A stretch of 64,000 nucleotides of DNA from Bacteroidales bacterium (lineage in GTDB: Bacteria; Bacteroidota; Bacteroidia; Bacteroidales; P3), in assembly GCA_017962615.1 (NCBI GenBank), contig JAGCUZ010000067.1:1017-65016 (forward strand), given 5' to 3'. The stretch's first letter is position 1. Each line of letters begins with the position of its first letter. Under the pieces are notes generated by a model that was not told where the DNA came from, searched no databases, and saw only the letters and a list, made by a program, of their open reading frames with translations. Below, one piece after another: positions 6,622-41,913 of this stretch. Both the position numbers and the translations under genes were made by a program.

Positions 6622-11112
<4,491 letters not shown>

Positions 11113-11483: not shown

Positions 11484-12224
11484 ATGCGTAAAGTATTCTT
11501 GGCCTTATTGTTGACTGCTGCGGCTACATGCCTGCAGGCGCAGTCGCTGCGTTTCATCTACAACGGCGATACGATTGCCAACGGCGACACGGTCGAGTAT
11601 GTTGCCACGGGTAGCGACGACGAGTATGTCGTCGACCTCCTGCTGTACAACGCCGCCGACAGCGCCGCCGAGGCGCGTGTGCGTGTGGCTACCGAGGGCG
11701 GCGACGGCCTCTTCGGCGTGGTCAGCGTCTGCGTGGGCATGTGCTACGAGGGCACGGTGTCCGACTATTTCGAGATGCAGCCCCATGCGGTCTCCGACGG
11801 CATACAGGTGCACTTCAGCTATGAGGCCTCTGCAGCGTCGGGTTCGGGAGTGGGCAGCGACCTCTTCGCAGTGTATGCCGAGGGGCGCGACGCCACCGCC
11901 AAAGAGGGCAGCCCCCGCATCTTCGTCCGTCTGAAGAAGAGTGGCAACGGCTGTGTCGAGGCGCAGTGTAACGACGTGTATTTCAAGACTTATCCCAATC
12001 CGGCGACAGGCCGCTTAACGGTGAGCTATGCCCTGCCTTCAGAGGCCAAGAGCCCGAGGGTCGAGCTGCGCAATGTCAGCGGTCAGCTGGTGGCGTGGCG
12101 CGCCATAGCCGCCAACAGCAGCGAGTGCGTGCTGTCGCTGGATGCCGTCCCCGCAGGCGTGTACATGTGCAGCGTCGTGAGCGACGGCCGCCTTCTGCAA
12201 ACCCGCAAGGTCGTAGTGCGGTAA
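11484..12224 (+). CDS. Secreted protein with a T9SS C-terminal sorting domain
   Basis: Signal peptide MRKVFLALLLTAAATCLQAQS. The C-terminal ~80 aa (TYPNPATGRLTVSY...AGVYMCSVVSDGRLLQTRKVVVR) resemble the Por_Secre_tail type. Confidence 0.8.
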   Translation: MRKVFLALLLTAAATCLQAQSLRFIYNGDTIANGDTVEYVATGSDDEYVVDLLLYNAADSAAEARVRVATEGGDGLFGVVSVCVGMCYEGTVSDYFEMQPHAVSDGIQVHFSYEASAASGSGVGSDLFAVYAEGRDATAKEGSPRIFVRLKKSGNGCVEAQCNDVYFKTYPNPATGRLTVSYALPSEAKSPRVELRNVSGQLVAWRAIAANSSECVLSLDAVPAGVYMCSVVSDGRLLQTRKVVVR

Positions 12225-12368
12225 GACAGCCTCTAACTATTTCAACCACAAGTCTCACTAATCTAACGAATTAGCATTCGTGCTATTCATGCAATTCGTG
12301 GTCTTGTAAAACGAAATTTCAGAGGTTGCGGCGATAAAGTTGAACTCATAATTAACGTGTTTTAGGCG

Positions 12369-12412
12369 AGCTTCTGTCCGCTGCCCCGACGGGCAAACGA
12401 CAGAAGCTTTTT
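12369..12412 (+). terminator. Candidate rho-independent terminator
   Basis: AGCTTCTGTC (12369-12378) pairs with GACAGAAGCT (12399-12408). An inner TGCCC-CGAC-GGGCA hairpin sits in the loop, and TTTT follows. Confidence 0.45.
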
Positions 12413-12464
12413 GTATCATTTTTCCGTCATTTCTCCGTCCGGAATTTGGTGTTTCCAAGTCGGC

Positions 12465-12575
12465 CAGAAAGGGCGTTTTTTGCCCGATTTTAACAAATTT
12501 TTGGTAAATCGTAAGTATATAGTTGATAAGGAGTTGGTGGGACCAACTCTTTATAATCTCTATACCTTCTCTATA
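12465..12575 (+). repeat. Palindrome-bearing intergenic repeat, copy 1 (degenerate)
   Basis: GTAAATCGTAAGTATATAGTTGATAAGGAGTTGGTGGGACCAACTCTTTATAATCTCTATACCTTCTCTA matches the reverse complement of 47591-47658. Flanking similarity (CAGAAA..CCGATTTT..GTAAATCGTAAG) extends the match. Confidence 0.7.
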
Positions 12576-12597
12576 CCTACCCTTTGTTACTATTAGG

Positions 12598-12778
12598 CAG
12601 GGGTGGATTTTTATTCTGGAGGGGGTGAAAAGGGGGGCAATTTTGGGTTGGGAGGGATGGCGGATTTGGAGAAGAGGGGGTGGAATTTTGTTTTGGAGGG
12701 GATGGATTTATATTCTGGTGGGGGTGGAAATGGGGTGGATTTTTGATTGGGAGGGGGTGGGGAAGGGGTGGTGGCACC
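12598..12778 (+). repeat. G-rich degenerate tandem array, unit about 22 bp (GGGGTGGAWTTTTRTTYTGGAG-like)
   Basis: At least 7 consecutive degenerate units can be read directly, for example GGGGTGGATTTTTATTCTGGAG, GGGGTGGAATTTTGTTTTGGAG and GGGATGGATTTATATTCTGGTG. Listed ORFs on both strands here are repeat translations. Confidence 0.7.
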
Positions 12779-13012
12779 TACGGTTGGGTTGCCTGCACCT
12801 CATTATGCCCCCGAAGGGAGTGCATAACAGTGGAATTTCTATGAATAAAAGTCTCACGTCACCGAGTGATAGTGTTAATACCCGCGGAATGTGTATGATT
12901 ACAGGGAATTTTGTTGTAAAATCAGCCCATTGATAATCAGTGGTATGCATTAAAAATAAGCAAAACTAAAAGAATTATTTTCAAGAATCTCGCCCATATA
13001 GAATCTTTTTCG

Positions 13013-13020
13013 TATTTTTG
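13013..13020 (+). promoter_or_regulatory. Bacteroidota-type -7 promoter box (TAnnTTTG)
   Basis: TATTTTTG lies 19 nt upstream of the ATG at 13039. Confidence 0.45.
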
Positions 13021-13038
13021 CAAAAAATTTGAAAGATT

Positions 13039-14697
13039 ATGAGTAGTATAGAAGAACTGAGTATGTTGAAGGAACGTGAGGATCACGTGGAGTTCAAGGC
13101 TGCGGAACATAACTATCCATTCGCGGGCGGCAAGAAGACTGAGCCTAAGGATAGGAGGCACTGTGTGCTGGGCTATGTGGTGGCGCTGGCCAACGAACGT
13201 GGCGGACGCTTGGTATTGGGCATGATGGATGCTTATCCGCACGAGGTGGTGGGCAGTGATTTTGCAGAAAACGAGACGGGTAATTTGGAGGACGAGATTT
13301 ACGAACGTCTGCATATCCGTGTGCGTACAGAGGAATTGCACGACGGGAAAGGACGGAGGGTGCTAGTAATCAAAGTGCCTTCAAGGCCCATCGGCAAGGC
13401 ACTAAGGTTTGAGGGTGTGCCGCTGATGCGTGTTGGTGAGAGCCTGCGGGAGATGGATGATGCTGAGTACTTCTCGATTATATCGGAACAGGATCCTGAT
13501 TATTCCGCACGGTTGTGCGAGGGGTTGACGCTGGAAGATTTGGACGAGACGGCTATCAGCAAGATGCGTGAACTGATAGTGAAGAAACGAGGGAAGAAGG
13601 ATGTGGCTACTATGCCGCAGGAGCAGTTGCTGCGGGACCTTAACCTGATTACCAAAGAGGGGCGGCTGACGAATGCCGCGTTGCTGCTTCTGGGCAAAGA
13701 GGAGGCGATAGGAAAATATATGCCGCAGGCGAATGTGGTGATGGAATACCGGGCCAACAGGAACCAGGTGCGTTATAGCTCGCGCGAGGAGTACAGGCTG
13801 CCGCTGTTTGTGGCCATCGACAAGATATGGGAGTATGTAAACCAGCCGGCTTGCAATCCGCTGCTGCACATCAACGACCTGCCGGTGATTCTGGACTGTA
13901 AGGCCTTCAACGAGGAGACTGTGCGCGAGGCAGTAATCAATGCGACGATTCATAGGAGCCTGCAGATGGGGTCGGACATTTTTATCCGTCTGTATCCTGA
14001 TATGATGGAGATCACGAATCCTGGCGGGTTTCCGTATGGTGTGAATATCGGCAATATCCTGACGGTGAACAGCTCACCCAGAAATCGCCTGATGATGGAG
14101 GTGATTGAAAAGACAGGTCTGATTGAGCGGAGCGGACAGGGCGTGGACCTGATGTGCGCGAACAGTGTGAAGGAGGGGAAACCGCTGCCGGATTACAGCG
14201 CTTCGGACGACTATCAGGTAAGCCTGCGGCTGTACGGTGAGATTCCCGACGATGCATTCTATCTGTTTACGCACGAGATACTGATGAATCAGGAACTGGC
14301 AGACCAACTGAATGCGTTTGACTGGATTACGCTGCACTTTGTGTGGGCAGGGAAGGTGGATGCCGGTTATGAGGAGAGTTTGGCAAAGTTGGTTGGCCTG
14401 AATTTGGTGATGGAGGATACGTACTTCAGGTATGTACTGGCTCCGGCTTATGTGGTGAAGAAGCCAAGGGCGAAGATGGTTGCGAAGCGGGTGGATGCTG
14501 CTGTGCTGGCTAAGGTATACTACGTGATTAAGCGAAGCGGTGAGGCTGCGATGAGCGACTTTGTGGAGGCATTTGACGGTGTGCTGACGCAGAAACAGGT
14601 GCGCACGCTGATCGAGGGCTTGTGCAGAGACTATCTGCTCTCGCAACACGGCAATGCCCGTGCGACAAGATACGTCTGGGCGGAAGAGTACGATTGA
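13039..14697 (+). CDS. Putative DNA-binding/ATP-binding regulator (AlbA_2 Schlafen-like N-terminal domain plus RecG-C-terminal-like HATPase_c_4 domain)
   Basis: 552-aa ORF. The N-terminus EREDHVEFKAAEHNYPF...LANERGGRLVLGM is typical of AlbA_2. The central VREAVINATIHRSL...ITNPGGFPYGV...SSPRNRLMMEVIEKTGLIERSGQGVDLM is typical of the HATPase_c_4 region of 'RecG-like' regulators. The gene looks lower in GC than its neighbours. Confidence 0.75.
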   Translation: MSSIEELSMLKEREDHVEFKAAEHNYPFAGGKKTEPKDRRHCVLGYVVALANERGGRLVLGMMDAYPHEVVGSDFAENETGNLEDEIYERLHIRVRTEELHDGKGRRVLVIKVPSRPIGKALRFEGVPLMRVGESLREMDDAEYFSIISEQDPDYSARLCEGLTLEDLDETAISKMRELIVKKRGKKDVATMPQEQLLRDLNLITKEGRLTNAALLLLGKEEAIGKYMPQANVVMEYRANRNQVRYSSREEYRLPLFVAIDKIWEYVNQPACNPLLHINDLPVILDCKAFNEETVREAVINATIHRSLQMGSDIFIRLYPDMMEITNPGGFPYGVNIGNILTVNSSPRNRLMMEVIEKTGLIERSGQGVDLMCANSVKEGKPLPDYSASDDYQVSLRLYGEIPDDAFYLFTHEILMNQELADQLNAFDWITLHFVWAGKVDAGYEESLAKLVGLNLVMEDTYFRYVLAPAYVVKKPRAKMVAKRVDAAVLAKVYYVIKRSGEAAMSDFVEAFDGVLTQKQVRTLIEGLCRDYLLSQHGNARATRYVWAEEYD

Positions 14698-14795
14698 AAT
14701 GGGGTGAGGGTAGGATTAAGGTTTGGAGGGGGACGGAAGTGATGCAGGGGTGGTGGAAAGGTGGGGGAGGGGTCGCGCGGATATATATAGGGGCG
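14696..14795 (+). repeat. Second G-rich degenerate array; direct partial repeat of 12727-12774
   Basis: GAAATGGGGTG...TTGGAGGGGG...GGGGTGGTGG occurs in the same order as at 12727-12774. The repeat begins inside the stop codon of the preceding gene. Confidence 0.6.
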
Positions 14796-14799
14796 GATT

Positions 14800-14833
14800 T
14801 TTGTTGATAATTTGTGGAAATTTCGTATCTTTG
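14800..14833 (+). promoter_or_regulatory. Candidate Bacteroidota promoter (TTTG ... TATCTTTG) facing the giant gene
   Basis: TATCTTTG at 14826-14833 fits the TAnnTTTG -7 box, with TTTG motifs at 14800-14803 and 14811-14814. No other such box was seen before 15770. Confidence 0.45.
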
Positions 14834-15189
14834 CAAATTACACATAGAGTGCTTGAATTGACAGTGACAATGATAAACGTGTGTATTGCAGTGAGAAAAC
14901 GGCTGCCGAGCCTTGCGTATAGCTGGGTTTGGGGGCGCTGTGCGGGGGAAAAACGAGACGAAAAATGACCGTGAACCGTAGAAAAACGGCGCATTGCCGC
15001 TGTTAAAAAGAGCAAAAAACGAAAACAAAAACAACCGAAATCGAAAGCCAAAACAACCGAAAACACGAAACAGTCAGTGAAGGGGAAGACCGAGGCGAGG
15101 GACGACAGAAACCGAAACGAGTAAGAACAGAAACCGAAACGAAGAAAGGACGAAAACAAATGACAACAGCTTCAAATATGACGGACACT

Positions 15190-15292
15190 TCGAGGGCGCG
15201 TACCTCCGGCACGCTTTATCTATCGGGCACGCCTGACCCCAGACTGCGCTGCGCTTGTCAGGGGTTATTGAGGGCAAGCCTCTCCGAGGCTT
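15190..15292 (+). repeat. Three-hairpin GC-rich module, copy A
   Basis: Contains GCGTACC-TCC-GGCACGC, CCCCAGAC...GTCAGGGG and AAGCCTC-TCC-GAGGCTT. The module is repeated at 15443-15545 and, inverted, at 46174-46276. Confidence 0.85.
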
Positions 15293-15442
15293 TCGAAGAA
15301 CGCTCCGAGACCGCATCGAAGCACACCGAATAAAAACAAAAGCCGGAACGAAAAGGAACAAAATCCGAAACGAGTAAGAACAGAAACCGAAACGAAGAAA
15401 GGACGAAAACAAATGACAACAGCTTCAAATATGACGGACACT

Positions 15443-15545
15443 TCGAGGGCGCGTACCTCCGGCACGCTTTATCTATCGGACACGCCTGACCCCAGACTGC
15501 GCTGCGCTTGTCAGGGGTTATTGAGGGCAAGCCTCTCCGAGGCTT
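15443..15545 (+). repeat. Three-hairpin GC-rich module, copy B
   Basis: Copy of 15190-15292 inside the second 253-bp unit. Confidence 0.85.
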
Positions 15546-15769
15546 TCGAAGAACGCTCCTAGACCGCATCGAAGCACAACGAATAAAAACAAAAGCCGGA
15601 ACGAAAAGGAACAAAATCCAAAACGAAGAAGAAAAGAAACTGAAACGAAGAAGAACAAAATCCAAAACGAACAAGAAAACAAACAAAAACAAGCAATATA
15701 GAGAGCTGGAAACGGAGAGGGCGAGAACTGATAAAACACTAAACAAGACTAAACCCGAGGAGGAGTAAC

Positions 15770-36700: not shown

Positions 36701-39157
36701 GACACGGCGGTGCTGTCGGATATGAAACTGTCGCTCGGCGGCCGTACGGGCTCGTTCTACTATCATGTGTCGGCAAAGGATTTGGCAGGCTGCCGGCTCG
36801 ACAAGTGGTTTAATGTCAACGTGCTCAAATCGACGACCGACATGGTTACTGTCGACGGACACGACTATGCCGCACCGGGACTGTATTACCGCTCCAACAA
36901 CAGCGACTACATCTGCACCGACACGAACAACCACGGCTCCACGACAAGCGGTGGCATCAAGCTGCTGCGCACCTTCAAGGCCCTCTCCTTCGAGGTCGTG
37001 GCGGCACCGGCGGGCTACGGCTCGGTATCGGCCAATATAGCCGGCGAGAGTGTCAACGTGGCACCGGGCAACGACTTCCCGCACTGCGAGGGTGAGCAGA
37101 TCAACCTCGTGGCCACTCCGACCGATTCGCGCTACAGCTTCCTTATGTGGGACTACGACCCGCAGGACAACGTGTCGTCGGTGTTCACCATGCCGCGCTC
37201 CAACACCCAGCTCACAGCCTACTTCGGCTGCCGCGGCTACTGGAAGGATCAGGTCCACACCAACCCCGGCAGTTCGCACTACCGTACCGACTACAACGGC
37301 AACGTACATATCTATTCGGCCAACGGTCTTGCCTGGCTCATAAGTACCGTGAACGGCTTGAACGGACAGCCTGCACACTCGTTCTTCTTCGACACTGTGT
37401 ATATCCACGACGCTTCGCACGGCGGCGTAGACAACTACGACATGAAGACATACCGCTGGACGCCCGTGGGTACCCAGCGCCACCCCTTCAAGGGTACTAT
37501 GGTGGCCGACGACAACGTGGTAATCTCCGGTGTCACCATCAACGAGCCGCAGCACGATTATGTAGGCTTCTTCGCCTGCGCCGACAGTGCTCGCATCCAC
37601 AACGTGAACCTGAGGACTGTGATGGCCATAGGCTCGCAGTATGTGGGTGGTCTGGCAGCCAACGTGACGCACTCCAGCATCAAGGGCTGCAAGCTTACGG
37701 GCGAGAACAGTGAGTCGCCAATCATCTCGACAGGCTACATGTCGGGAGGTCTGGTGGCCAACGCCGACAACGTGAAGTTCGACAACCTCGACGTGTCGTG
37801 CAAGTTCATCGGCACCGCTATCTACAGCGGCGGCGTGGTGGGCTATGGCAACAACTCGCGAGTGGACAACGCTGCGGTGTGGGATGTCAACCGAATGGCG
37901 GCACTCTACCACGGCGGCGCAGCTGGCCGCATGGTGGGTGTGCAGACAACGACCGACACCATCTATACCGACACCACGGCTTTCGACTCTACAACGGTCG
38001 ACACCACCGGCAATGGCACCGGCGGCAACACTCACAATGCAGCCAAGAGCTTGTCGGGTTCGAAACGCATAATACAACACTACAGCTCGGGCCTGAACAA
38101 CGTGTACGTGCACGTACAGAGCGAAGGCAAGGGCCAGCGTGTCGGCGGTCTCATAGGCTATGCCACTGGCGCCGAGATGCAGAACAACTATGTGTATGGC
38201 GAGGCGCAAGGCTCAGTGTCGTCAGGAGCCTTGGGTGCCATGATAGCACGCAATGTGACGGTCGACAACTGCTTCTATCAGGAAAGCACGGCACGGCAGG
38301 CTATGGGCATGTCGCTCTCGACGGGTACTACAACCAACGTGTCCGACTTCTCGGGCTCTGGTAACCAAGTGCGTGTGAGAGACGCCGTGGGCGGCGTCGA
38401 CAACCTTACCCGCGTGCTCAACAACTGGGTGCGCCGTCAGCCGTCGGGCAGCTACAACACGTGGCGGTCAGACCTGCAGGGTGTCAACAACGGCTACCCG
38501 CTCTTCGGCATACCCGACATAGTGCCGGTGTACGACACCATCTACGACGTGGCTTGCGACGTGTATCACTGGAACGGCAACGACTACATGCTCAGCGGCG
38601 TGTATGAACGCCACAGCACCGACTCGGCCAACTTCGTCGACAGCATCGTGCTGCTCAACCTGTCGGTGTACAACAGCACCACCGAGCAGGTAGCCGACAG
38701 CGTGGCGCTGGGCGAGGACTACAGTGGCTACGGCTTCTTCCTCACCGCCGATGAGCTGCGTGCGCTGCGGTCGGTAATCGACACCAACAGCGACGGCACC
38801 GCAGTGCTGCATATAGCCGACAGCCTGCTCACCACGCACGGCTGCGACAGCATCGTGCTGCTCGACCTCACACTCTTTGTCAAGGGTGGCGGCGGCAGTG
38901 ACGCCATGGAGCCTGTGAAGGCGTTCCCCGTCAGTGTCTATCCCAACCCCACCAACGGACGTGTCACCATAGAGGCCGACGCCCTGCTGCGTGTTGAGAT
39001 ATACGACAACGTAAGTCGTCGTGTTGCCACGGTAACGGCGGGCGAAGGGAACGGCCACAGCGTGCAGTACAACCTCGAAGCACTGCCTTCGGGCGCCTAC
39101 TTCCTGCGCATCGTAACCACCAACGGCACAGCTATCAAGAAACTAATCAAGAGATAA
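15770..39157 (+). CDS. Giant (7,795 aa) multidomain cell-surface/secreted protein with a T9SS C-terminal sorting domain; adhesin-like
   Basis: Single uninterrupted 23,388-nt ORF.
- Signal peptide: MKVMKYGAAVCMLAAMMALGTPAGMA starts at codon 39 (alternative start ATG 15884).
- At least five [FY]Y[TK]xxG..P modules lie at about 19.1-24.0 kb (IYYTTNGTDPT, RFYYTLDGSTVP, NIYYTTDGTTPT, KIFYTLNGDTPT).
- Two GLUG-like regions carry GGLVG/GGVVG/GGLIG motifs.
- About 1,900 aa are [YF]GGGN-x-[AG]-x-V beta-helix-type repeats.
- One segment is InlB-B-repeat-like (AAPAGYGSVSANIAG...YSFLMWDYD).
- The C-terminus is VYPNPTNGRVTIEA...GAYFLRIVTTNGTAIKKLIKR. Confidence 0.9.
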   Translation: MMRTNNNMTENRSMLNNNMTENRSMSNNNMTEKRSMSKMKVMKYGAAVCMLAAMMALGTPAGMAQGYAPNSTGTGTVTNSNPGYAIYNGTYYIGGSSIMGSRTFQPRSCVWTSTNDKWKNSADYYLSFVAGLFSSGLGLTSNLPDATSYFMSGTESGTTGRYLYSVFDGDKQYMTYGSKWIQSSTDSAACVFTIAKHEYTPTWQSPVIGCNSELYPGNIQLTVSTAASLNPEMAYVDYEFCNNAHHYYLADNVTALATACPAATFNYVWTMTGVDSLYATLNSSTGVLSYVNPVPTETEVTITLTATSRTYGQVLTGTKRVTLKPLVLTSASEVSSGIFHVYALRNMGTGEYLRDKQDATMHYVAAQSGNLADSVTHGVMGWYFMDAGAGYVYIRNYQTGAYLYCNYTAGAREHSILVSAEMPAGNSGKFLLDAIRNENGIGMAIKPYGTTGLSVYPYSTNSGDAGTYLATASATALWQPQIVQMLRSISTTPVQLAAQQNVALGAITPDGGSVPYGGGDLFTVTPSALTVNPVIERPSYREYRRNDNVARYYWSSTEQSENLSFHSNAPEVISAEGGWSGTMVQTQVTRYHWTLADYNGTNALENLSFAAHTARADTTAARRNNGNGEITVYNYHQNANLTTRRQATLSVEAIYENVDALGNTFTFRSATSSTTAGAVQSLSLIEYTTNARDSIYAYCLVNFNRGALSDTITGTRRNANATTANTVTVSGGQNTADRYWYLVRTADNDGSVYVVNLLTKRYLYCTGTAGNNTVTTRYSATAPAESNYKFTMSNVTVDGIGYLRLSPKNAAGYYVRSNDANNSGNINMTNAGSGDAYNYTLWRNYKELVCVIAPQVSNVELLTATLDAAVDTMLTTTGEYRYGASCAIVPPHYMLNGYNYYYTVANGVWTRGTGQTIIATTDQPYVPGIAQIEWSLRAGARDGAVVAGGNYIDNGNTTNKAYINYNTLATGHGIDTLEAHFTYAGYPDASVQQWLIHYGGTAAPTSITVTPEVVGTETRLPYSLTYELEPSYAYDSVVCTTSDNTVAPVSGWSRGGRINLTAGNSLGIATVTLTAYGRGLSTGVTATVTVNTYTACATPSYTDGAAYFHGETLKISNGTESGANVDTIYYTTNGTDPTVEGSSSILSGGSISVAECEDGAIVKALAWRDGHAESDIAQYTVNRYDAPEVTDHVSKNQLDVKNGERAGDGTSHVRYTVNGLAPQYSTPTTVTGASADTAVSIAVLARGTAVSLRTYGDTKYPSEMVKRNIMRYTKPHIDNYTPYSDALSTNLTGRIYSNGGSCIYVNSDKFEVDGVTLKDPNPWDPTTYTIKVSTGTNISLAVGRIKAVAAVCNTEGVRGEVLYTSRVAVIDQNYTPYIAFQYTDGTNERFLSLNHETRQMETSTEFDQYCLWKRNLSSFISQTFNSTTYYLGVNSDNRLFITTDTNAATRFVDWDNKLYRLTRDGRFVSPTQVVQLGGNGVWSTTMVIDGVNSQIAYLVKTDQRDESEHRVLRDFYIDSIASDSTGKAYDAYSLHKYRTWLAMDQSGERYSLSVQPHVSYRTHTLPAYTYYYFDDRTSTSNNFVYYSSHSYRSEMDLPHTERDENSTASTNVTYHWVLTGNEAGAFASVSSTTNKQIVQRTATAVDRPKRARLTVWARYDDGETAMNAYTDTVTLIAESRTTLLTSNTGDGFLNDRVYVLVSYADTAYRVSFSDGSANGVDNPAVLSVRAGHNSLWRMRAVQDGANYYYTFNSINSGNPLVWNHDTSSVQDNPAVYVGRPAVAADSQFVLTPYADAENGVYFTLEPRRVATNHPYHYLSLTPYGAAFSENNSLRLINYHRSNNLYYVNQWVNSYYDSPVSAFELSRLQLRTPKMPEPGIYMDENGIVSLVDSVSILNSVDVTIYYKLCRLGGSWSADWLTYYEADKPRLELGDKIKAYSVATGSYSYFLPSEVTDEFTALKVSTPVIYSNGNLIAFEATTTTTGEPIEGARFYYTLDGSTVPTSDIGLRFSEPYDTLRANYTVKCVAYADNYLKSDVATLGFTTKLELVMDVTGTSTYNVTLGVINGSVTQGTHYNIYYTTDGTTPTTSSTLYNGQFQLTGYALVKARAITRNPSVCSTSDVVTRFVGKQLYVLNYNANGGTSSDTNFMYVTDGGDLNNDNVPHYTSFVVGPATGNVGGDLFYSYVNDGYLGCHVSGVPIAAVTSAVEASLWIYEPATHRLHTAAGDYVAFDAAQSKWTVCELTDGNPPANHYVNVCFPADTQTHLQDTIVTVTPNELHFSLMQPARWTGAVEGLGINRPEWDVYDMDGNWLSVNSGDTMKVFSSVMATVDSLIRLEHVDLSIRDNVGGSELQSWHHLPDRDRFTARESEVSTEKLVTIDAHRLGGHVVWTFNSTTKRPETNAADRSGAFNSYINYVFVGAPDYDTLCLIRNNTATSGPDFSGRLSVEATVPSGGVSYNFPRQTGYVYAETRDNGNLSISSSQTYKLTAMNDNTRYLSILAGSEADHEYVGDEPIIGLQSHYNRYALWQFRQVRNSTDNSRVWHIYNYFQPEDSVVWINNWCWEKDTYGSIYLYNPVSNAAYAWKVSHPDPIGGGNSTKCDFAINLNKGGYVTISPYNNNGTETWAKRSSQRLSLIENSNTATSTRYSHIGLAYTYWGKGHYNPSNDTTTFYKCRWKLAPATLVEPLVSMNPSGEVTFEHDFLTAPDAELRNATKIFYTLNGDTPTSTESATNMIYDPANKPVMTYGQTLKAVAYINYQSTEQTSPVVTFTPERCVAPTIAEGEGGTFVINHTAGDSVKYSLNSAVIAWDCGAPDCKLYEDGRQISMEDGDIYRMVAFKHNYFESEIASYYHVNKLELNLAYTPSTTDGVTTTAPEVALTVPGALPGFYAIYWTVDNSVDMAHLNQASLPATVHVYTGPVNDTLTVLPRNTSTIFRAVAMSTGTVTYYEASDVVQQPVMWGFGSGQTLQYGTGTQSDPYQIHTAGDLMIVAGNTALRSGYFKVMEDIDATGCSVPSIGGADFSGNWDGNYKVIKGLVNPMFESTYDAWVYNTMLDAANISATGDYCGAIVGQAKGDTRVFNSGVIAKSGVSRVSGTRYVGGLVGYLADDSRVVNCYNYASVSASAANGYAGGLVGYQVTASDVSSIGAIVFNCMNYGDVLSVQTVAPVVGGNATSNVAPNGINTYLYYAHEVELTGTTIAYNAAIDVEKRYIERYPLYRYILNSNLEKSGYFINSVLSSQNVGKWVLDRNVAPYPVVLCPMGRRTTGEFNKYIVSNSATYPSTEGNAYEGKRLGMLNVTINRGAYGTGAASTTVAIPITDIDTPNFDYNYYKIQLPYYQEYFDYSNSEAKIVTGWKVTSVTKNGSTLTSFVSGDLQHYNYADRSNPTKDIYDATNNKYRVFAQGGYYNVPEGVTAITIEAYWAKAIYLQDQYYDVTFNASDYGGRTNVTFYGTRPTQYHGQTVKTSIDAALNALTNENTVYDQAIVLVGNCHYRHERGNNGWYNSTSKPFTIMSADDDKDLEPDNVMVHQHEGRRNINPVRFDFMGNPGLSMTSMPTGSATQAIHGIWQPNGHFEITETCIARYSQFEYYYKNNSQPIILNGGIFENMLSTKSDPATALSYIQMGGHVWMRLFTPGCHSDVSKMTKHCPIIVTGGEYEEFYLSGMTNPNAPENNEDPYLFANGGRFGTYASGGMEKIPANVTVECDHIIADEFYGGGINAAKPITGNISVTVNNSKIGLYVGGPKFGDMSSGKTVTTNATNTVFGTYFGAGYGGTAIYRDRVCQDPVNSPNYNWSVCFTGDSPTVSWGGRSGVLNYKVNRGKKFNNGVLVGYDWDLLPGSGGISSLKSVARLYYHYATLSRANTRGVSNTLVGCTVKNDFYGAGYVGTTTGDVNTTLTDCTIEGSAYGAGYSAKVPMCGVDAVPTVYPYYTVQTSYYDVPPVNDKTYYTWNTVSGSIPNGTDCLDNTDYLIKTTASTSGLGTVTGNVSLTIDGNSYINGDVYGGGDEASVSGNTTVVIKDLTYVDGDVFGAGNLAVVTGNTSLTVGSADGSDKPYLYGDVYAGGNQADVGAAASNNSTTSVTINTGAMGSVYGGGNEGSVFGSTVVNVNGGWIGYEYSAEGDVNRENPVKVPVDFGDTRLTDVVCGAGYGIGTTVTKTTTVNIGNASSMAGDVHIFGSVYGGGEEGQVGGGYIRRNVKSGENVSSGYYTMDPADSLIKSMTGVATAPCDTFYYKKYDPSTYGAGWDNITSRVTVKSDGTNKVFVEGAVFGAGRGFYSEYEEHKGKYSTYANHSPEKEIRGTIYGNTIAEVGTVGQDTSMITIKTMNYYTTWEEAKSYGLVGSSALSGAVFWEQSLFVKDADYGAIVELTPGILGNKINAEGRDGSKVLNFDPGRLDVVKNVQYYLNTGRVSVAGGGEEGAVVGNYNGTYSSSGKGGNSTVIVHSGTLGDVQYHTRSGENFGEVNGCVYGAGISADIDGVSRIIFDGPTIHCRGDVYAGGCMGAVHAYKRASAGTAVTATQVTFEQGWARNVHAGSNLAPTPAGNNAVLTIGKAEWSDDGYRESEWNNTLVSESCYGGNGFSGSDAVTYVDMYSGKVGYVLSGYDINLVGDAVNKNHRHADNGVVAAPFDVPKNVVVSNHQGELLYEGALYGAGFGPQAHVRSSNVTLHGGSVRNGVYGAGEMGAVIAMTGDGEPLGSYRHTKVESDGTVKNVWTPYYAGATANVEMRGGIAAMVCGGGRGYSNFLQVEGDLPGAVCGNTNVTISGGTVDTIKYDYDLGGGSVFGGGLEGVVTGNTTVTISGGHVKGRVYGGGRGFRGAIEGKYYDSSENIKDRAAVNAGAVLGNTSVSLARDCEAIVEKGVYGGGEGCNYITPTASGQRKDTVGVVYGNATVDIAGGVIGLGLNYAGVSENGSYAGGRIAPVYGYADMLVHGTAEVASVFGGNDISGFVGGRGRSNTVSLYRSEVDGSSPLLSRDSTATYVKIYETPRVGHVYGGGNGDYTYYDDQAYAALALTKPHQKSTYIDIKIDRTLRENHANAGRPISGYVMQAFGGGNAATVDTARVHVYGLGLVDTLFGGGNSATVTRMARILLNANPVRTGSGSTQNTDNINNVNTLFGGNNAAAMSIMPAIDLNSGIVDKLYAGGNAGAMLARQTVTDLFGRSLGNVSTYLLVNSDSLTVRTALYAGCNCARVAGGTFVDVRKTTTQAAAGRTVYGIGSLFGSNDISDTVKEARIDMTGGYVHNLFGGGNGQYNYTRQGNFYVVTPYGVPYNGVNAFVDRSPGRPYVATTHVNVMGGTIDNNIYGGGYAGDCGNTYLFVNDTVTYNGHQVSATGTARVSGKIFGGGYGDETMIGNKAYSNAHVGNVTGTATTDLYHLHELGEAYAYGGGNAGDVNNTCFTVHPSWNHSFVNIYGGCRASHVKGTANTYINATDTTMDVAQALYGGNDFGGTVANSNLVVRGGRYTNIYGAGNGDYNYYADPAITALPGGTQIDTVPVSQRVRTTIYNAHVIRNAYGGSNMGYVMTDSAYHSNVADYARIELNVHGGMFERSIFTGSHGKAGGNQLAYALKQFNMDGGKVLISVYGGSENVNDGYPAECHSPSNTTRRPSSVLNFTGGEITNNVYGGGYLGRIYGSVYINVGAQAVNDCPVWTTRYETSPMMGSREYTGSGTGYDVYKPTFVTTDEADTASNLKANDLYLRQSIYNGSDWGTGSGEYVFNHVGFYGGVSNILIDGTGYNTSFSDEGSSLPAMDIYYSIIGSGTSCEGGDISRKIIMRNYGEYTCNGNEPAFSKEIFSVQRADSVIFDNVNVAIHGEQDAYTAFLSPKYSMCRVDTVIFHDENIVALKAPAVFVGNMRFEHADGSLVNRSEDMSTMYGYSINPDAPQYAGSAFTAARAAAEARFPSGMANRQDSINRYMDTVSLLENVCDSIPICVKMRSDMPFTKLYVVDGVYVDILGFTDNGGTGENANDAYGSIDGYCFLYSAPGTEAYISARHKTPQDNATDGGFFSSCDRENKVECSFNTSCIELGFDNYPTAGYRTWVLGSGEKSRKRQVTIVAHSDVRNLPGSNMRIDIPYKKTDLTDSTESLHLALAHANLMLPPIPVGHYFTIDAMYVDQANDGQMRLLKAAVGEDGNRAVWKYMNDAVPTPGSGIPVDGRDISADPDYTFGLIFMTKNRFGSPSVDCYPEGDGMRCYDHSLVSGNLNYEEIAGFKSPAIVAGGQIGLPQLEFLLTYDTNFTTTISRDVVFLMVERDQEGVRVAPLEVSVTINTVIKDFKDKDVSVLGMFNDGITDIYMRKVIMPASLNRRELYLDTIEWEPYKADQHTPDVFHLTNVSRMAGTLDSTRFAVTVEPAEDVMIDTLASMGWNTVFIPYIDVFDYCRPPAADTLYKYQADLVAGNSRGAYMGILDGRATAALDVTLHFNGNLLYPVKDTIGVIRLKFSYAEGSRDGTFNVNIYVKTRDKGDTIYLASADRVVRDGITLYPYNRQNGIYDGGMHLNYNEANGKTPTRYLQNFDDALSPLVYIEGDVFAIIDTLKFQSDRNIVLRGQDYSIMQVIRYSGSHYTFPGEACAYRGPMVMIEGDGKLTTYNMRFDGSGVSRIKPVYTTRQAYPDSLCNIFTNAQGATRYSYKPDKRVKDTTFSNGPVFLVRNGGTLTLNNKTSVLHNFNMATGLGRDTLQGAAIRVVGGHRKPTVTLSNQVLIAENVVSDAAALTNHKPSGAVHLQRASLQLGSSSATSCVTITDNFYSNGDSKFWKVSPTDDNKYLFDTTNIWRSRSNVYLTRTPGSPDAVINDDISDAVSFRYDIKSRTRIGVNKWFPGPTTRDTIQVARVSVSKQLYAKHAYENGNFINDSAAYTGDVFYHSTIGPYVLYLHRCASFKKQKLGDLLADLPNGTRLLQDSVMEYRTGINSSCPNGTDRMIYHVTGGFYPYTYTWSIEDGSGNDVTTLRTKKTPYTNDQVKKALSENNPEPMLLSNSDTAVLSDMKLSLGGRTGSFYYHVSAKDLAGCRLDKWFNVNVLKSTTDMVTVDGHDYAAPGLYYRSNNSDYICTDTNNHGSTTSGGIKLLRTFKALSFEVVAAPAGYGSVSANIAGESVNVAPGNDFPHCEGEQINLVATPTDSRYSFLMWDYDPQDNVSSVFTMPRSNTQLTAYFGCRGYWKDQVHTNPGSSHYRTDYNGNVHIYSANGLAWLISTVNGLNGQPAHSFFFDTVYIHDASHGGVDNYDMKTYRWTPVGTQRHPFKGTMVADDNVVISGVTINEPQHDYVGFFACADSARIHNVNLRTVMAIGSQYVGGLAANVTHSSIKGCKLTGENSESPIISTGYMSGGLVANADNVKFDNLDVSCKFIGTAIYSGGVVGYGNNSRVDNAAVWDVNRMAALYHGGAAGRMVGVQTTTDTIYTDTTAFDSTTVDTTGNGTGGNTHNAAKSLSGSKRIIQHYSSGLNNVYVHVQSEGKGQRVGGLIGYATGAEMQNNYVYGEAQGSVSSGALGAMIARNVTVDNCFYQESTARQAMGMSLSTGTTTNVSDFSGSGNQVRVRDAVGGVDNLTRVLNNWVRRQPSGSYNTWRSDLQGVNNGYPLFGIPDIVPVYDTIYDVACDVYHWNGNDYMLSGVYERHSTDSANFVDSIVLLNLSVYNSTTEQVADSVALGEDYSGYGFFLTADELRALRSVIDTNSDGTAVLHIADSLLTTHGCDSIVLLDLTLFVKGGGGSDAMEPVKAFPVSVYPNPTNGRVTIEADALLRVEIYDNVSRRVATVTAGEGNGHSVQYNLEALPSGAYFLRIVTTNGTAIKKLIKR
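15782..15880 (+). repeat. 33-bp x3 tandem repeat overlapping the annotated 5' end of the giant ORF
   Basis: AACAACAATATGACCGAGAACAGAAGTATGTTG occurs three times with 1-3 changes, encoding NNNMTENRSML/NNNMTENRSMS/NNNMTEKRSMS. Each unit carries two in-frame ATGs. Confidence 0.95.
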
Positions 39158-39272
39158 TACTTTAGTTTTAAGTTATTAGTTCTAAGTTTTAAGTGGCTGG
39201 CGCAATATCTATCGCATCTATCACATCTATCGTATCTATCCTATCAACATTAAACATATCAACATATTCAGT
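39155..39272 (+). repeat. Stop-codon-anchored intergenic repeat, copy 1 (AT-rich TAAGTTATTAG part, 9-bp ATCTATCNN iterons, ATCAACAT repeats)
   Basis: Aligns with 49197-49334: TAAGTTATTAGTTYTAAGTT.TAAGTRGCTGRCGCAAYATCTATCGCATCTATCACATCTATCGTATCTATCCTATCAACAT. Confidence 0.9.
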
Positions 39273-39467
39273 ATGAAGAGAAAATACACGACCCCGTCTA
39301 TCGAAATCCGCAGCTACGCTGTGGAGGCGGGCTTTGCGGTAACACTGCTTCTCGAATCGGACAACCGTCTGGAATGGGCTGGCGACCACGAGACCATGCG
39401 CAGCCAGGAGGAGCTCTCCGAATTGACCGACAACACCGGCGAGTACTCGGCGGGCTATTGGGAATAG
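39273..39467 (+). CDS. Hypothetical small protein (64 aa)
   Basis: ATG-initiated ORF (MKRKYTTPSIEIRSYAVEAGFAVTLLLESDNRLEWAGDHE...SAGYWE) in the gap between the giant gene and the lipoprotein gene, on the same strand. The same 24-mer precedes it and the lipoprotein start. No recognisable family. Confidence 0.4.
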   Translation: MKRKYTTPSIEIRSYAVEAGFAVTLLLESDNRLEWAGDHETMRSQEELSELTDNTGEYSAGYWE

Positions 39468-39472
39468 TGGAA

Positions 39473-39496
39473 CTAGGCAAACATAGGATTGCCTAG
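39473..39496 (+). promoter_or_regulatory. Hairpin between the small ORF and the lipoprotein gene
   Basis: CTAGGCAA-ACATAGGA-TTGCCTAG forms an 8-bp stem. GGATTGCCTA is repeated directly at 39506-39515. No U-tract follows. Confidence 0.3.
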
Positions 39497-39561
39497 GATA
39501 CCCTGGGATTGCCTATGTGGGGCAACGTATAAACGTATCAACATTAAACATATCAACATCA

Positions 39562-41913
39562 ATGCATAAATATTGGTTTAAGTATATACCCTTCCTGCTT
39601 CTGCTTTTGGCCGTAGGATGCCGTAAAAAGGATTCGGTGATTACTTTCACGGCGACGATGGAAGAGCCGCGGGGCGACGATAAAACATACCTTGTCGACG
39701 AGAGGATTGTGTATTGGAAGTCGGGCGACCGCATATCGACATTCTCCGACCTGGACAACAACTCGACGGGTACACCCAATGCGGTGGGCACTCTTGAGCA
39801 GAATCACTACACGGATCATGCCAACGGCTTGTTCCGTGCCGCTTTGGCACACGCGGAGCCTGCCGAAGTGCTGGCGCTGTACCCATACAATGAGGATAAT
39901 CAGTCTCAGTATTCGTCGGAGTTCAGCAACATCATAATCAACATCCCCAAGACTCAGGAATACGAGTCGGACGAGACCTTTGCCAACGACTGCTTCCCCA
40001 TGGTGGCATGGGCCGAGGTGGGCAGCCCGTTCTACCTCAACTTCCATGCTCTTGCTGGACTGGTGCGCCTGCAGCTGTTCTCGACTACGACAACGAAGAA
40101 TATATCGAGCATCGTGTTCGAAGAGCAATCGGGTGCTGGTAGCAGCCGCAAACCTATTTGCCAGCAGTTTTACGTGAAAGGCTATAGTGCCGCCGAACCG
40201 TATCTGACTTATCTCGCGGGTCCTGACGATGATAATAGTAAGGTTACAATCAACTGCTCGGGCGGTGGTAAACGTATATCGTCGGGCGCGGATGGCATTG
40301 CCACGTTCTACCTCTCGTTGCCTTACGTGCCTTCGGGTGGCAACGACTACACCACCTACAGGTTGACCATGACGGTGCTCACAACCGACAGCAAGCAGTG
40401 CAAGAAGACTTTCAACGTTACCATAAAGCGCAACACCATAACGAAGGTCCCGGCCCTGAACATTACCGAATGGGCAGCGGTGGGCGGCGGCAACGGCACC
40501 GCCTCGGCCGAGCTGGTGGGCAACGGCACCACGACGAAGCCTTTCCAGATATACACCGATGCCGACATGCGTGTGGTGCGCAACGCCTACAACGGCGGCG
40601 GTACCATCAACGGTATGCCGCTGAGGGATGGCATGGTGTTCCAGGTGATGCGGTCGGACATCCGTCTCACCACCTCGAACTGGACTGAGGGTATTCAGGA
40701 CTTCACCGGCGTGCTTACCTACAGGGCCAACGACCCCGACGTGCCGGGCATCACCAACGACAGCTACAGCCCTATCTTTGAGTCGATAGCTCCCGAAGGT
40801 CAGGTTGAAGGTCTCACGGTGAAGGCCACGATATCGCGCTCGGTAACCGAGCCGCTCTACTTCTCGCCGTTCTGCTACGACAACAAGGGCACCATCAACA
40901 AATGCAAGTTGGCCAGCACGGCTACGGTGTCGTTCACCTCGACGGTGTCGGAGGTCGAGAGTGCCGGCGTTGGCGGCCTTTGCGTGAATAACTACGGCAC
41001 GATAGAGGCCTCGTCGTCAGGGGCGCGTCTGTCGGCCGTGAACCATATCTGTGCAGGTATCTGCCTCTTCAACCATGCCACGGTGACGTCGAGTTACATC
41101 ACCTCGCCGGGTACGCTGACGGGCACGAGGGTGGCTGGCATAGTGTACGAAAACGAGGGCGATGTGTCCGACTCGTACTTTGCCACCAATGTCGACCACT
41201 CCACGGCCGATGTGGGCTGCATAGTCTACCGCAACCGCGATGGCCGTGTCAGCAACTGCATGGTGATGAGCTCTGGTATTGTGAACACGTCGGGCACCTA
41301 CGGCGGCATTGTGCATACCTGCACTGGGGGCGAGATTAACTATTGCCGCAACATATCCGACCTGGTGAATGTAGGCGGTTCGGCTGGCAACCCGTCGTAC
41401 GGCGGCATCGTGTGCAGCATGGAGAACGGAAGGGTGATTAACAGCTTCTGCGACATCCCCGGTACCAGCGTTAACGTGACCAACGGCTACGCCGGAGGTG
41501 TGATTGGGTCTATCACCGGCGGTGAAGTCCGCAACTGTTTTGCCCGCTACCTTTTGGGTGGTGGTGCCGATGTGGGCTCGTTCGTGGGTAATGCCGATGC
41601 TGGCGATATAGCCAACTGCTACGGCTGGAGCGACGATGGAACCACCGATTTCCAAGGAATTATGGGAGGCACTTCCTACGACAATGTGTTCAATTACAAC
41701 GTTGGCACCGATGTCACCGCCTCGTTTGTGGATGCCGGCTCCATATGCCCGTTGTCGCATACTGTCAACGACTGCGACGACCTCTTGACCGTTCTTAACA
41801 AATGGGTCAATAACAACGGCGGCGACTATATGAGCTGGATAGAGGCCGGCGGCGGCAGTCCCCAACCTCTCATCGACGGCGCTATCTACGCCAAGAAAGG
41901 CATACGGTACTAA
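39562..41913 (+). CDS. Cell-surface lipoprotein with a GLUG-like repeat region
   Basis: Start chosen at MHKYWFKYIPFLLLLLAVGC, which has a lipobox (LAVGC). The listed ORF starts 15 codons earlier. The central and C-terminal part runs GNGTTTKPFQIYTDADMRVV..., then GVGGLCVNN, RVAGIVYEN, YGGIVHTC, YGGIVCSM and GYAGGVIGS repeats. There is no T9SS CTD. Confidence 0.85.
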   Translation: MHKYWFKYIPFLLLLLAVGCRKKDSVITFTATMEEPRGDDKTYLVDERIVYWKSGDRISTFSDLDNNSTGTPNAVGTLEQNHYTDHANGLFRAALAHAEPAEVLALYPYNEDNQSQYSSEFSNIIINIPKTQEYESDETFANDCFPMVAWAEVGSPFYLNFHALAGLVRLQLFSTTTTKNISSIVFEEQSGAGSSRKPICQQFYVKGYSAAEPYLTYLAGPDDDNSKVTINCSGGGKRISSGADGIATFYLSLPYVPSGGNDYTTYRLTMTVLTTDSKQCKKTFNVTIKRNTITKVPALNITEWAAVGGGNGTASAELVGNGTTTKPFQIYTDADMRVVRNAYNGGGTINGMPLRDGMVFQVMRSDIRLTTSNWTEGIQDFTGVLTYRANDPDVPGITNDSYSPIFESIAPEGQVEGLTVKATISRSVTEPLYFSPFCYDNKGTINKCKLASTATVSFTSTVSEVESAGVGGLCVNNYGTIEASSSGARLSAVNHICAGICLFNHATVTSSYITSPGTLTGTRVAGIVYENEGDVSDSYFATNVDHSTADVGCIVYRNRDGRVSNCMVMSSGIVNTSGTYGGIVHTCTGGEINYCRNISDLVNVGGSAGNPSYGGIVCSMENGRVINSFCDIPGTSVNVTNGYAGGVIGSITGGEVRNCFARYLLGGGADVGSFVGNADAGDIANCYGWSDDGTTDFQGIMGGTSYDNVFNYNVGTDVTASFVDAGSICPLSHTVNDCDDLLTVLNKWVNNNGGDYMSWIEAGGGSPQPLIDGAIYAKKGIRY

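Follow-up and report, generated by a model that had tools for sequence, protein, structure and literature searches.

A conserved gene trio of a predicted giant type IX secretion cargo, a small acidic protein and a predicted pilin-fold lipoprotein in uncultured rumen and gut Bacteroidales

We analyzed a stretch of 64,000 nucleotides (nt) from an uncultured Bacteroidales genome (metagenome-assembled genome 'Bacteroidales bacterium', assembly GCA_017962615.1, contig JAGCUZ010000067.1, positions 1,017 to 65,016 of the forward strand; this whole stretch is called the window below), which carries a locus built around a giant gene. A sequence-only reading of the window had described five elements in a row on one strand, and this order was confirmed on the plus strand: an AlbA_2/HATPase_c_4 gene (13039–14697; 552 amino acids, aa), an intergenic leader (14698–15769; 1,072 nt), the giant open reading frame (ORF; 15770–39157; 7,795 aa), an ORF encoding a 64-aa acidic protein (39273–39467) and the gene of a 783-aa lipoprotein (39562–41913). 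Based on the ORF call and on Pfam and NCBIfam matches, the giant protein is a predicted adhesin and type IX secretion system (T9SS) cargo. Three of the five elements, namely the giant gene, the small ORF and the lipoprotein gene, constitute a conserved gene cassette, which was found in about 25 uncultured rumen and gut Bacteroidales genomes. The source record (locus tags J6X62_07285 and J6X62_07290) annotates the small ORF and the lipoprotein as 'hypothetical protein', and across the cassette members the annotation reads only 'hypothetical protein' or 'T9SS type A sorting domain-containing protein'.

The conservation of this trio was assessed from both of its ends. On the lipoprotein side, an exact look-up gave three loci (L001, L003 and L005) and a scan with one genome per GTDB species gave 17 more; 19 distinct loci were left after the removal of duplicates. 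On the giant side, seven loci were looked up, distant ones included. At all 19 lipoprotein-side loci, where the lipoprotein homologues show 31–38% identity to the window protein, a sorting-domain (Por_Secre_tail) ORF of >3,200 aa and then a 59–70-aa ORF lie directly upstream. Similarly, a 59–67-aa ORF and a 780–808-aa lipoprotein lie directly downstream of the giant at all seven giant-side loci, which span 31–45% identity. The co-occurrence of giant, small ORF and lipoprotein in related genomes, which had been put forward as a check of the earlier proposal, is therefore positive at 19/19 and 7/7 loci. The lipoprotein-side loci come from uncultured Bacteroidales of the gut or rumen of sheep, yak, buffalo, deer and cattle. 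The single scan match without cassette context (L023) is weak, covers part of the N-domain only and belongs to a different protein. Among the giant-side loci the flanking genes fall into at least three arrangements (DUF4290/murA, Sua5 and MerR/LptD_2), and the adjacency of the three genes is thus not mere shared synteny. In addition, among 28 homologues no lipoprotein of the cassette family was found away from a giant. At two loci (L003 12479–13042; L026 24093–24656), a 187-aa ORF with no Pfam match stands between the lipoprotein gene and DUF4290; neither the window nor most of the loci have this ORF, and it is possibly a lineage-specific fourth member.

The arrangement of the three genes is consistent with an operon. 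The small ORF is present between giant and lipoprotein gene in 23/23 tabulated loci, its start overlaps the stop codon of the giant by 4 nt in 12 of these 23, and the gap from the small ORF to the lipoprotein gene is short. Within the window, a pattern scan found no Bacteroidetes promoter box between the trio genes (none in 39100–39600), and no terminator-like hairpin was found between them, the scan counts being near the shuffle expectation; a sigma-70-type promoter scan also gave counts near the shuffle expectation and is uninformative. The consensus of the Bacteroides -7 promoter box is TAnnTTTG. A match to it, TATCTTTG, was located by pattern scan on the plus strand at 14826–14833, with TTTG 15 and 26 nt upstream, and is the probable promoter of the giant-gene operon. 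The only other match to this consensus in 12200–15900 lies at 13013, 26 nt before the ATG of the AlbA_2 gene, and therefore the AlbA_2 gene and the giant gene have separate predicted promoters.

The idea that all five elements form one unit held for the giant, the small ORF and the lipoprotein, which are adjacent in every relative examined, and failed for the AlbA_2 gene and the leader. The AlbA_2 protein matches PF04326 (36.8 bits) and PF13749 (64.2 bits), both above cut-off, and is named 'putative DNA binding domain-containing protein' by NCBI; it had been taken for a putative regulator. Its 90%-identity cluster comprises 17 members, mostly on short contigs. One of them (P0173; at least 90% identical; L032 1731–3389) sits between a Peptidase_M15_3 gene and an AAA_15/RloB pair, and the DNA similarity between the window and this copy (85%) is confined to 12886–14691, that is, the gene and about 150 nt of promoter. 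A metagenome scan for relatives of the AlbA_2 protein gave 50 loci with 56–88%-identical proteins, and at none of them is a homologue of any trio member encoded. The ORFs at these loci do not exceed about 1,200 aa, with the exception of a single unrelated one of 2,657 aa, and 21 of the 50 loci extend at least 5 kb downstream of the match. Conversely, the AlbA_2 gene is absent upstream of the giant in L028, the only relative with a visible upstream region, where a TATCTTTG box lies within the 219 nt upstream of the giant gene. The case against a regulator rests on L028, on the AlbA_2 protein's own relatives and on the portable-module result. On these sequence comparisons, the AlbA_2 gene is a portable gene outside the cassette.

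Several further features surround this gene. G-rich repeats of about 24 nt (GGGTGGATTTTTnnTnnGGAGGGG) bracket it at 12593–12775 and 14708–14803, and the stretch in common with the L032 copy (12886–14691) lies inside this bracket. Two assemblies made independently from the same strain break off within the G-rich repeats or shortly before them, at 12516 and 12585, which suggests that these repeats occur elsewhere in the genome. The AlbA_2 protein also shows weak PADLOC matches to pAgo/Argonaute-associated proteins (E about 1e-6). The AAA_15/RloB pair and the phage-type peptidase beside the L032 copy hint at a role in defence or in a mobile element.

The leader is similarly not a conserved part of the cassette. 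It is A-rich and carries 22-nt periodic GAAAC-type repeats (14834–15874, plus strand; repeat families D1 and D4), and from the promoter box to the start codon of the giant it measures about 940–1,040 nt. Two tandem copies of a 253-nt unit, 98% identical to each other, occupy 15105–15610 on the plus strand (repeat family D2). This unit is present in two copies in the window and in L029 and in one copy in L030 (2521–2815), both loci being otherwise 99.7–99.98% identical to the window; its copy number thus varies within the strain or population. The 36-nt core of the unit is absent from 29 other loci. The leader is strain-local and, with its variable repeat number and the lack of its repeat core in relatives, drops out of the unit that had been proposed. 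Two candidate functions of this region were rejected. As an RNA element, it matches no Rfam family and the folding z-score of the 253-nt unit is 0.07. As an invertible promoter, the 14826 box is flanked by a single inverted repeat, I2, a 17-nt pair of 82% complementarity whose arms lie 2.5 kb apart and which was taken for chance; the other two pairs in 12200–15900 do not flank the box.

The giant protein is divided into an 'A' part (aa 1–4046; 15770–27907, plus strand), delimited by Pfam matches and by its colinearity with gene A of the relatives L024 and L025, and a 'B' part (aa 4055–7795; 27932–39157, plus strand), which is kept in all relatives. The A part contains a weak beta-trefoil-like match, four Fn3_assoc/CHB_HEX_C_1 stretches, a first GLUG-like module and the start of a GGG beta-helix. 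In the B part, GGG beta-helix, tandem immunoglobulin (Ig)-like adhesin-type domains and a second GLUG module precede a T9SS type A C-terminal sorting domain (aa 7723–7795; 38936–39154, plus strand), which scores 41.9 bits with PF18962 (cut-off 27) and 40 bits with TIGR04183 (cut-off 23). At the other end of the protein, three 33-nt in-frame tandem repeats (NNNMTENRSM; 15780–15893) make up the first approximately 35 codons and precede a signal-peptide-like stretch (aa 45–64); after these repeat codons, aa 38–66 consist of a K-rich stretch followed by the hydrophobic AAVCMLAAMMALGTPAGMAQG. Translation of the giant probably begins at the ATG at 15875 or at either of the next two ATGs, and the number of 33-nt repeats may shift the start context.

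A search with about aa 4800–7795, within the B part, returned 486 proteins at E <= 0.001; the 120 matches listed are 2,851–5,208 aa long, and PF18962 is present in 119 of these 120 giant homologues. The B part of the window giant shares 45% identity with gene B of L024 over 3,915 columns, and 19 other giants are colinear with about aa 4800–7795 at 31–40% identity. The N-terminal part of the giant varies far more strongly than its C-terminal 3,000 aa. A word-indexed protein search with the first 2,000 aa (15770–21769) gave no match at E <= 0.001, which reflects the insensitivity of the index and not absence, since 35%-identical A genes exist in the fetched loci; in a metagenome scan, an A-region alignment gave no relative. 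No part of the giant has a relative in the PDB by sequence, and neither Pfam, NCBIfam nor the PDB sequence search revealed a toxin or enzyme domain. The AlphaFold2 (AF2) model of aa 5750–6900 (predicted local distance difference test, pLDDT, 73.8) consists of tandem beta-sandwich domains. The top Foldseek matches of this model are the fimbrial tip adhesins CfaE, CupB6, LpfD and FimH and the Gram-positive surface adhesins BspA, ClfB, SdrD and Cna; no enzyme or toxin fold was found in the fold search of this region.

In most relatives, the two parts of the giant are encoded by separate genes. Two giant genes stand in tandem in six of the seven giant-side relatives (L024, L025, L026, L027, L031 and L084), and L028 has a single 5,208-aa giant. 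In the six, gene A encodes 4,074–6,172 aa with no Por_Secre_tail match, and gene B encodes 3,799–4,859 aa with its own signal peptide and sorting domain; Fn3_assoc/CHB_HEX_C_1 matches are found in gene A of relatives, with none on record for L024 and L025. Gene A of L024 and L025 is colinear at 34–35% identity with aa 752–4046 of the window giant and gene B with aa 4055–7795; in the more distant relatives, the upstream A genes are unrelated to the window A part. Alignment with L024 and L025 places the junction at aa 4047–4054, within TVGSADGSDKPYLYGD (27908–27931, plus strand). The junction falls amid successive GGG beta-helix coils, and about 10 codons stand here where L024 and L025 have a stop codon, a 58-nt spacer and gene B's signal peptide (compare L024 9850–10100). 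In these relatives, gene A ends with VAGSINVQIGEK and a stop codon, and gene B starts with MKNKKVLLTLSVFIFLAAFANAQVYIDGDVYGGGNQASVG; the end of gene A is a beta-helix coil, VFGGGNTAKVAGSINVQIGEK, and after the signal peptide gene B resumes with a like coil, QVYIDGDVYGGGNQASVG. The window junction reads in frame TVGSADGSDKPYLYGDVYAGGNQADVG. As judged from these alignments, the window giant is an in-frame fusion of the A and B giant genes. The same fused 7,795-aa ORF occurs in three assemblies, the window and two independent assemblies from the European Nucleotide Archive (ENA), and the fusion is therefore not an assembly error. The fusion argues that A and B are parts of one fibre. Of note, three separate A giants end in a beta-helix coil that is continued by their B protein.

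The 64-aa protein (39273–39467, plus strand) is a conserved cassette member with an isoelectric point (pI) of 4.5 and neither signal peptide nor hydrophobic segment; the pI of its family is 4.1–4.8. Differences between homologues amount to 0.33/0.28/0.55 at codon positions 1/2/3, which indicates that the small ORF is a real coding sequence. Almost no variation is seen in two motifs, Y-x-x-P-x-x-E-x-x-x-Y-x-x-E-x-G-[YF] and [ED]-E-x-x-E-x-T-[DN]-x-x-G-[EQ]-x-x-x-G-x-W. A phmmer search against 1.84 billion representatives gave 14 matches, of which ten are free-standing proteins of 54–68 aa; one lies in the C-terminal part of a 164-aa product, and three, in large proteins, are spurious. We also considered the small ORF as a detached piece of a neighbour and rejected this, as its hidden Markov model (HMM) gave no match to giant or lipoprotein, nor to any of 120 giant homologues (best E 0.46).

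The lipoprotein (39562–41913, plus strand), of 783 aa when counted from MHKYW, has a hydrophobic signal that ends in the lipobox LAVG-C20. Its homologues comprise 28 full-length proteins of 752–860 aa at 27–38% identity, in addition to one 99%-identical copy, and C20, K41 and G320-x-G322-T323 are invariant in the 28. The AF2 model built from 28 sequences (pLDDT 84; predicted template modelling score, pTM, 0.83) falls into two halves, which were assigned with Foldseek: an N-terminal type V pilin fold (aa 21–304; 39622–40473, plus strand) and a C-terminal GLUG-type beta-helix (aa 305–783; 40474–41910, plus strand). The nine best PDB matches are all Bacteroides fimbrial or 'cell adhesion' proteins, among them 3t2l, 3ufi, 4k4k, 3sy6, 3up6 and 4gpv (E 1.9e-6 to 2.1e-5, probability 1.00). 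Porphyromonas gingivalis PG0181 (4rdb) and Mfa3 (5nf4) stand lower in the list, in which pilin matches reach an E of up to 4e-3 and span 307–369 columns. The beta-helix is matched by 7uvl (E 8.6e-5), 6xjb (4.1e-4) and 3n6z (5.9e-4) over 494–666 columns. According to this model, the lipoprotein combines a type V pilin fold with a GLUG beta-helix of IgA1-protease type.

In the model, a first strand (aa 25–33) is followed by a low-confidence loop (aa 37–50), which holds the invariant K41, and a 480-aa beta-helix stands after the pilin fold, in place of a donor-strand tail. True pilins have their protease cleavage site in the loop after the anchor strand (PMC13655056). Export of lipoproteins in Bacteroidetes is signalled by K-(D/E)2 or Q-A-(D/E)2 (PMC5080379). 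At least two D or E residues occur within six residues after the lipid-carrying Cys in 24 of the 28 homologues, the strict export pattern in 6 of them, and the acidic stretch of most homologues thus fits this signal.

The lipoprotein and the giant share more than their neighbourhood. The regular expression G.GT...P[YF]QI.T..D[LM], the entry motif of the sequence-only reading, matches once in each protein as described there: at aa 2971 of the giant (GTGTQSDPYQIHTAGDL) and at aa 320 of the lipoprotein (GNGTTTKPFQIYTDADM; 40519–40569, plus strand), where it opens the helix. The repeated GG units with NC spacers were also found again in both proteins above the shuffle means, with three GG[LIV][VIA] units in the lipoprotein (shuffle mean 0.39) and eight in the giant (shuffle mean 3.4); those of the giant cluster at aa 3100–3155 and 7293–7500, with NC[YFM] spacers between. 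Of the two giant modules, the first (aa 2971–3200; 24680–25369, plus strand) opens with the entry motif, and the second, conserved one (aa 7150–7600; 37217–38569, plus strand) was identified by Pfam GLUG and by hhalign. Pfam GLUG (PF07581) scores 29.1 bits in aa 7150–7600 (cut-off 20.5; three stretches) and 19.5 bits in aa 2950–3250, just under the cut-off, where a weak Peptidase_M26_N match also occurs; it has no match in the lipoprotein. Pairwise similarity is weak (BLASTP E = 7e-4, lipoprotein aa 269–408 versus giant aa 2923–3043). The profile of the C-terminal half of the lipoprotein family aligns by hhalign with aa 7150–7600 of the giant family (97.7%, E = 1.6e-12, 202 columns), the match including a similar C-terminal cap, LNxWV...W...P, and an HMM of the same half matches the giant at aa 3059–3180, 7285–7429 and 7433–7569. 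Judged by these profiles, the C-terminal helix of the lipoprotein and the conserved GLUG module of the giant are homologous, and the suggestion that the two proteins have a GLUG-like module in common is borne out.

The same cannot be said of the entry motif as a link between partners. Its G-x-G-T-x3-P-[YF] form is found in every lipoprotein homologue; among the giants, the motif occurs only in the window A part and in the A gene of one relative, and it is missing from the B giants. An unrelated 604-aa protein downstream of the cassette in L005 (20344–22158) carries it as well (GKGTRDLPYLISTPTDF), and it is therefore generic for such beta-helices and no signature of partnership.

Within the window, the locus is flanked on the left by the ribosomal-protein and RNA-polymerase genes rplA, rplJ, rpoB and rpoC, and on the right by a Sua5/YciO gene (minus strand), a tRNA and housekeeping genes. 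rpoC is directly followed by a gene (11484–12224) whose 246-aa product carries a signal peptide as well as a T9SS sorting domain. This protein was rejected as a cassette member, since it is not conserved beside the cassette in relatives, where nothing beyond sorting-domain similarity was seen; the presence of this second sorting-domain protein suggests that the T9SS is in use. None of the T9SS machinery genes PorK/L/M/N, Sov and PorU/V lies within the 64-kb window.

As an overall explanation, we consider it probable that the cassette core encodes a surface adhesion apparatus consisting of a T9SS-displayed adhesin fibre of one or two giant proteins, a lipoprotein partner and a small cytoplasmic protein. 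The trio would be transcribed from the promoter box at 14826. Export of the giant would use Sec for the inner and the T9SS for the outer membrane, whereupon its sorting domain would be removed and the protein attached at the surface, its beta-helix shaft displaying the lectin-like and Ig-like adhesin domains. The lipoprotein would be lipidated at C20, flipped to the cell surface and be the cell-proximal partner of the fibre, an adaptor or anchor, in the way in which the pilin-fold lipoproteins Mfa3 and Mfa4 serve the T9SS cargo Mfa5 in P. gingivalis; we infer physical contact between lipoprotein and giant. The small protein would act in the cytoplasm on the giant, which it might hold or chaperone or whose expression it might support.

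Several observations weigh against this explanation. Gene adjacency shows a common function and not physical contact, and no stalk or anchor pilin gene lies nearby at any locus, so that the cassette is not a canonical type V pilus. The pilin-fold matches reach only moderate template modelling (TM) scores on the target (0.43–0.50; across the nine best PDB matches 0.28–0.50), and no fimbrillin model matched the lipoprotein in Pfam and NCBIfam at E <= 0.01, or its N-terminal half at E <= 10. With a single acidic residue, the sequence CRKKDS of the window lipoprotein is a weak export signal. T9SS cargo of type A is normally anchored via anionic lipopolysaccharide (LPS) and needs no protein anchor, and a dedicated partner is therefore not required. 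Finally, the small-protein family is represented in none of Pfam, NCBIfam and PADLOC and has no homologue with known function; its proposed role is a guess.

A more specific form of the surface apparatus, which appears rather unlikely at present, would be an as yet undescribed hybrid surface-filament system in which a giant T9SS beta-helix fibre is captured and held at the cell surface by a dedicated lipoprotein, whose pilin fold is combined with a copy of the GLUG helix of the fibre itself. For this capture, a strand could be inserted, as in pilins, into a groove that cleavage at K41 has set free, or the homologous helices could stack end to end. The 64-aa protein would then be a cargo-specific cytoplasmic factor for an oversized protein, and separate A giants, for want of a sorting domain, would depend on joining the assembly to reach the surface.

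Alternatively, giant and lipoprotein might be independent adhesins, co-regulated in one operon and alike in domain type without ever touching each other, an explanation that we regard as doubtful. The generic nature of GLUG helices and of the entry motif, with its occurrence in the L005 neighbour and its lack in B giants, speaks in its favor, as do the separate anchoring route of type A cargo and the lipoprotein's own lipid anchor and adhesin-like C-terminal domain. However, strict adjacency across 26 loci at 31–45% identity and in three contexts exceeds usual co-regulation, the small ORF is wedged between both genes and translationally coupled to the giant, and none of the 28 homologues places a family lipoprotein away from a giant. 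It is hardly credible that the AlbA_2 protein regulates the giant via the repeat-laden leader in a five-part unit. Shared strand and adjacency, seen in the window and in two more assemblies of the same strain, and the unusual length of the leader would agree with such a unit, but the at least 90%-identical copy elsewhere, similar only in gene and promoter, the absence of cassette homologues from all 50 loci of AlbA_2 relatives, the lack of the gene in L028 and its own promoter box at 13013 argue against it. The same holds for a leader that varies in repeat number, shows no sign of structure and lacks a counterpart in relatives, and the Argonaute-associated PADLOC matches point away from a dedicated regulator.

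The position of a small, acidic, signal-less protein right after the giant, often with overlap, also recalls a toxin-immunity pair, in which the giant would carry a toxic domain. In CdiA/CdiI and Rhs loci, the immunity gene usually sits right after the toxin gene. Nevertheless, such a pair is very unlikely here, since no toxin or enzyme domain was detected by Pfam, NCBIfam, the PDB sequence search or the fold search of aa 5750–6900 and since the small protein is conserved: its motifs are strongly maintained while the giants are 31–45% identical, and immunity proteins normally vary. The C-terminus of the giant is moreover a sorting domain following conserved GLUG and Ig-like modules, with no variable toxin tip.

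In the literature searched, no described system with this gene combination was found. New are the fixed trio, the predicted pilin-GLUG fusion, the small acidic protein and the A/B giant pair with its fusion; T9SS cargo, the type V pilin fold and the GLUG helix are known kinds, and there is precedent for the combination of T9SS cargo with pilin-fold lipoproteins. Few products of gut and rumen Bacteroidales are as poorly understood as their giant surface proteins, and the cassette offers two strictly co-inherited helper candidates for giant T9SS cargo, the pilin-fold/GLUG lipoprotein and the tiny acidic protein. As the giant family is abundant in rumen metagenomes, it may bear on the attachment of uncultured, fibre-associated Bacteroidales to plant material or other cells. 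Fusion and fission of the A and B giants constitute a natural experiment on the question of whether both form one fibre. If the lipoprotein turns out to be the anchor or assembly platform of the fibre, the importance of the system would rise sharply.

Comparison with known systems places the lipoprotein near the type V pilins (BF1858 3t2l, BACOVA_04980 3ufi, BF1861 3sy6, PG0181 4rdb and Mfa3 5nf4), with which it shares the lipoprotein signal with its invariant Cys and, in the model, the N-terminal strand, the loop with an invariant basic residue (K41) and the double beta-sandwich. Unlike stalk pilins, it has a large beta-helix where the donor strands would be, and unlike type V pilins in general, it shows no match to a fimbrillin sequence model and never stands beside other pilin genes at the loci examined. 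Tip and adaptor pilins are described as classes without donor strands (PMC13655056), and the cassette lipoprotein resembles tip-type pilins in its predicted pilin fold without a donor-strand tail. Among the Mfa proteins, donor strands are assigned to Mfa3 and none to Mfa4 and Mfa5 (PMC13655056); according to another study, neither Mfa3 nor Mfa4 has C-terminal linker strands (PMC8512630), and the two sources thus disagree on Mfa3.

The C-terminal half of the lipoprotein is alike by predicted fold to the GLUG or IgA1-protease-type helix (Streptococcus pneumoniae 6xjb and 7uvl; BACOVA_03286 3n6z). In contrast to IgA1 protease, the cassette proteins have no M26 peptidase domain, and the GLUG module in the cassette is part of an adhesin or scaffold and not of a protease. 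With respect to PF07581, the helix of the lipoprotein is too diverged for the model, whereas the two giant modules match or nearly match it.

SprB, a gliding adhesin of Flavobacterium johnsoniae, is a repetitive T9SS surface protein of about 6,500 aa, encoded in an operon (sprC, sprD, sprB and sprF) whose accessory genes are needed for its display; its sorting domain is of type B, and its outer-membrane partner is of the PorP/SprF type. The cassette resembles SprB as a giant repetitive T9SS surface adhesin in an operon with dedicated accessory genes. In contrast to SprB, the cassette giant ends in a type A domain (TIGR04183) and is accompanied by a pilin-fold lipoprotein and a small soluble protein; no PorP/SprF-like gene was seen at the cassette loci examined.

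The closest documented parallel is found in the Mfa1 (type V) fimbria of P. gingivalis. Mfa5 needs its C-terminal domain (CTD), the T9SS and PorU to reach the surface and then joins the tip proteins Mfa3 and Mfa4 (PMC8512630). In contrast to this fimbria, the cassette and its vicinity are devoid of genes for stalk (Mfa1) and anchor (Mfa2) pilins at every locus, and Pfam and NCBIfam scans gave no sequence similarity of the cassette to any Mfa protein. Mfa5 is a vWA protein of about 1,200 aa, whereas the cassette cargo has 3,000–7,800 aa with beta-helix and Ig-like domains; and unlike in Mfa3 and Mfa4, the pilin fold is fused to a GLUG beta-helix of about 480 aa and a conserved 64-aa protein is encoded between the genes. 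What the cassette has in common with Mfa5 and Mfa3/Mfa4 is a T9SS cargo with a sorting domain encoded beside a pilin-fold lipoprotein, and the Mfa proteins cooperate at the surface. Altogether, this suggests that the T9SS cooperates with lipoproteins of the type V pilin fold more widely and in more varied ways than the example of Mfa5 in one oral pathogen would indicate.

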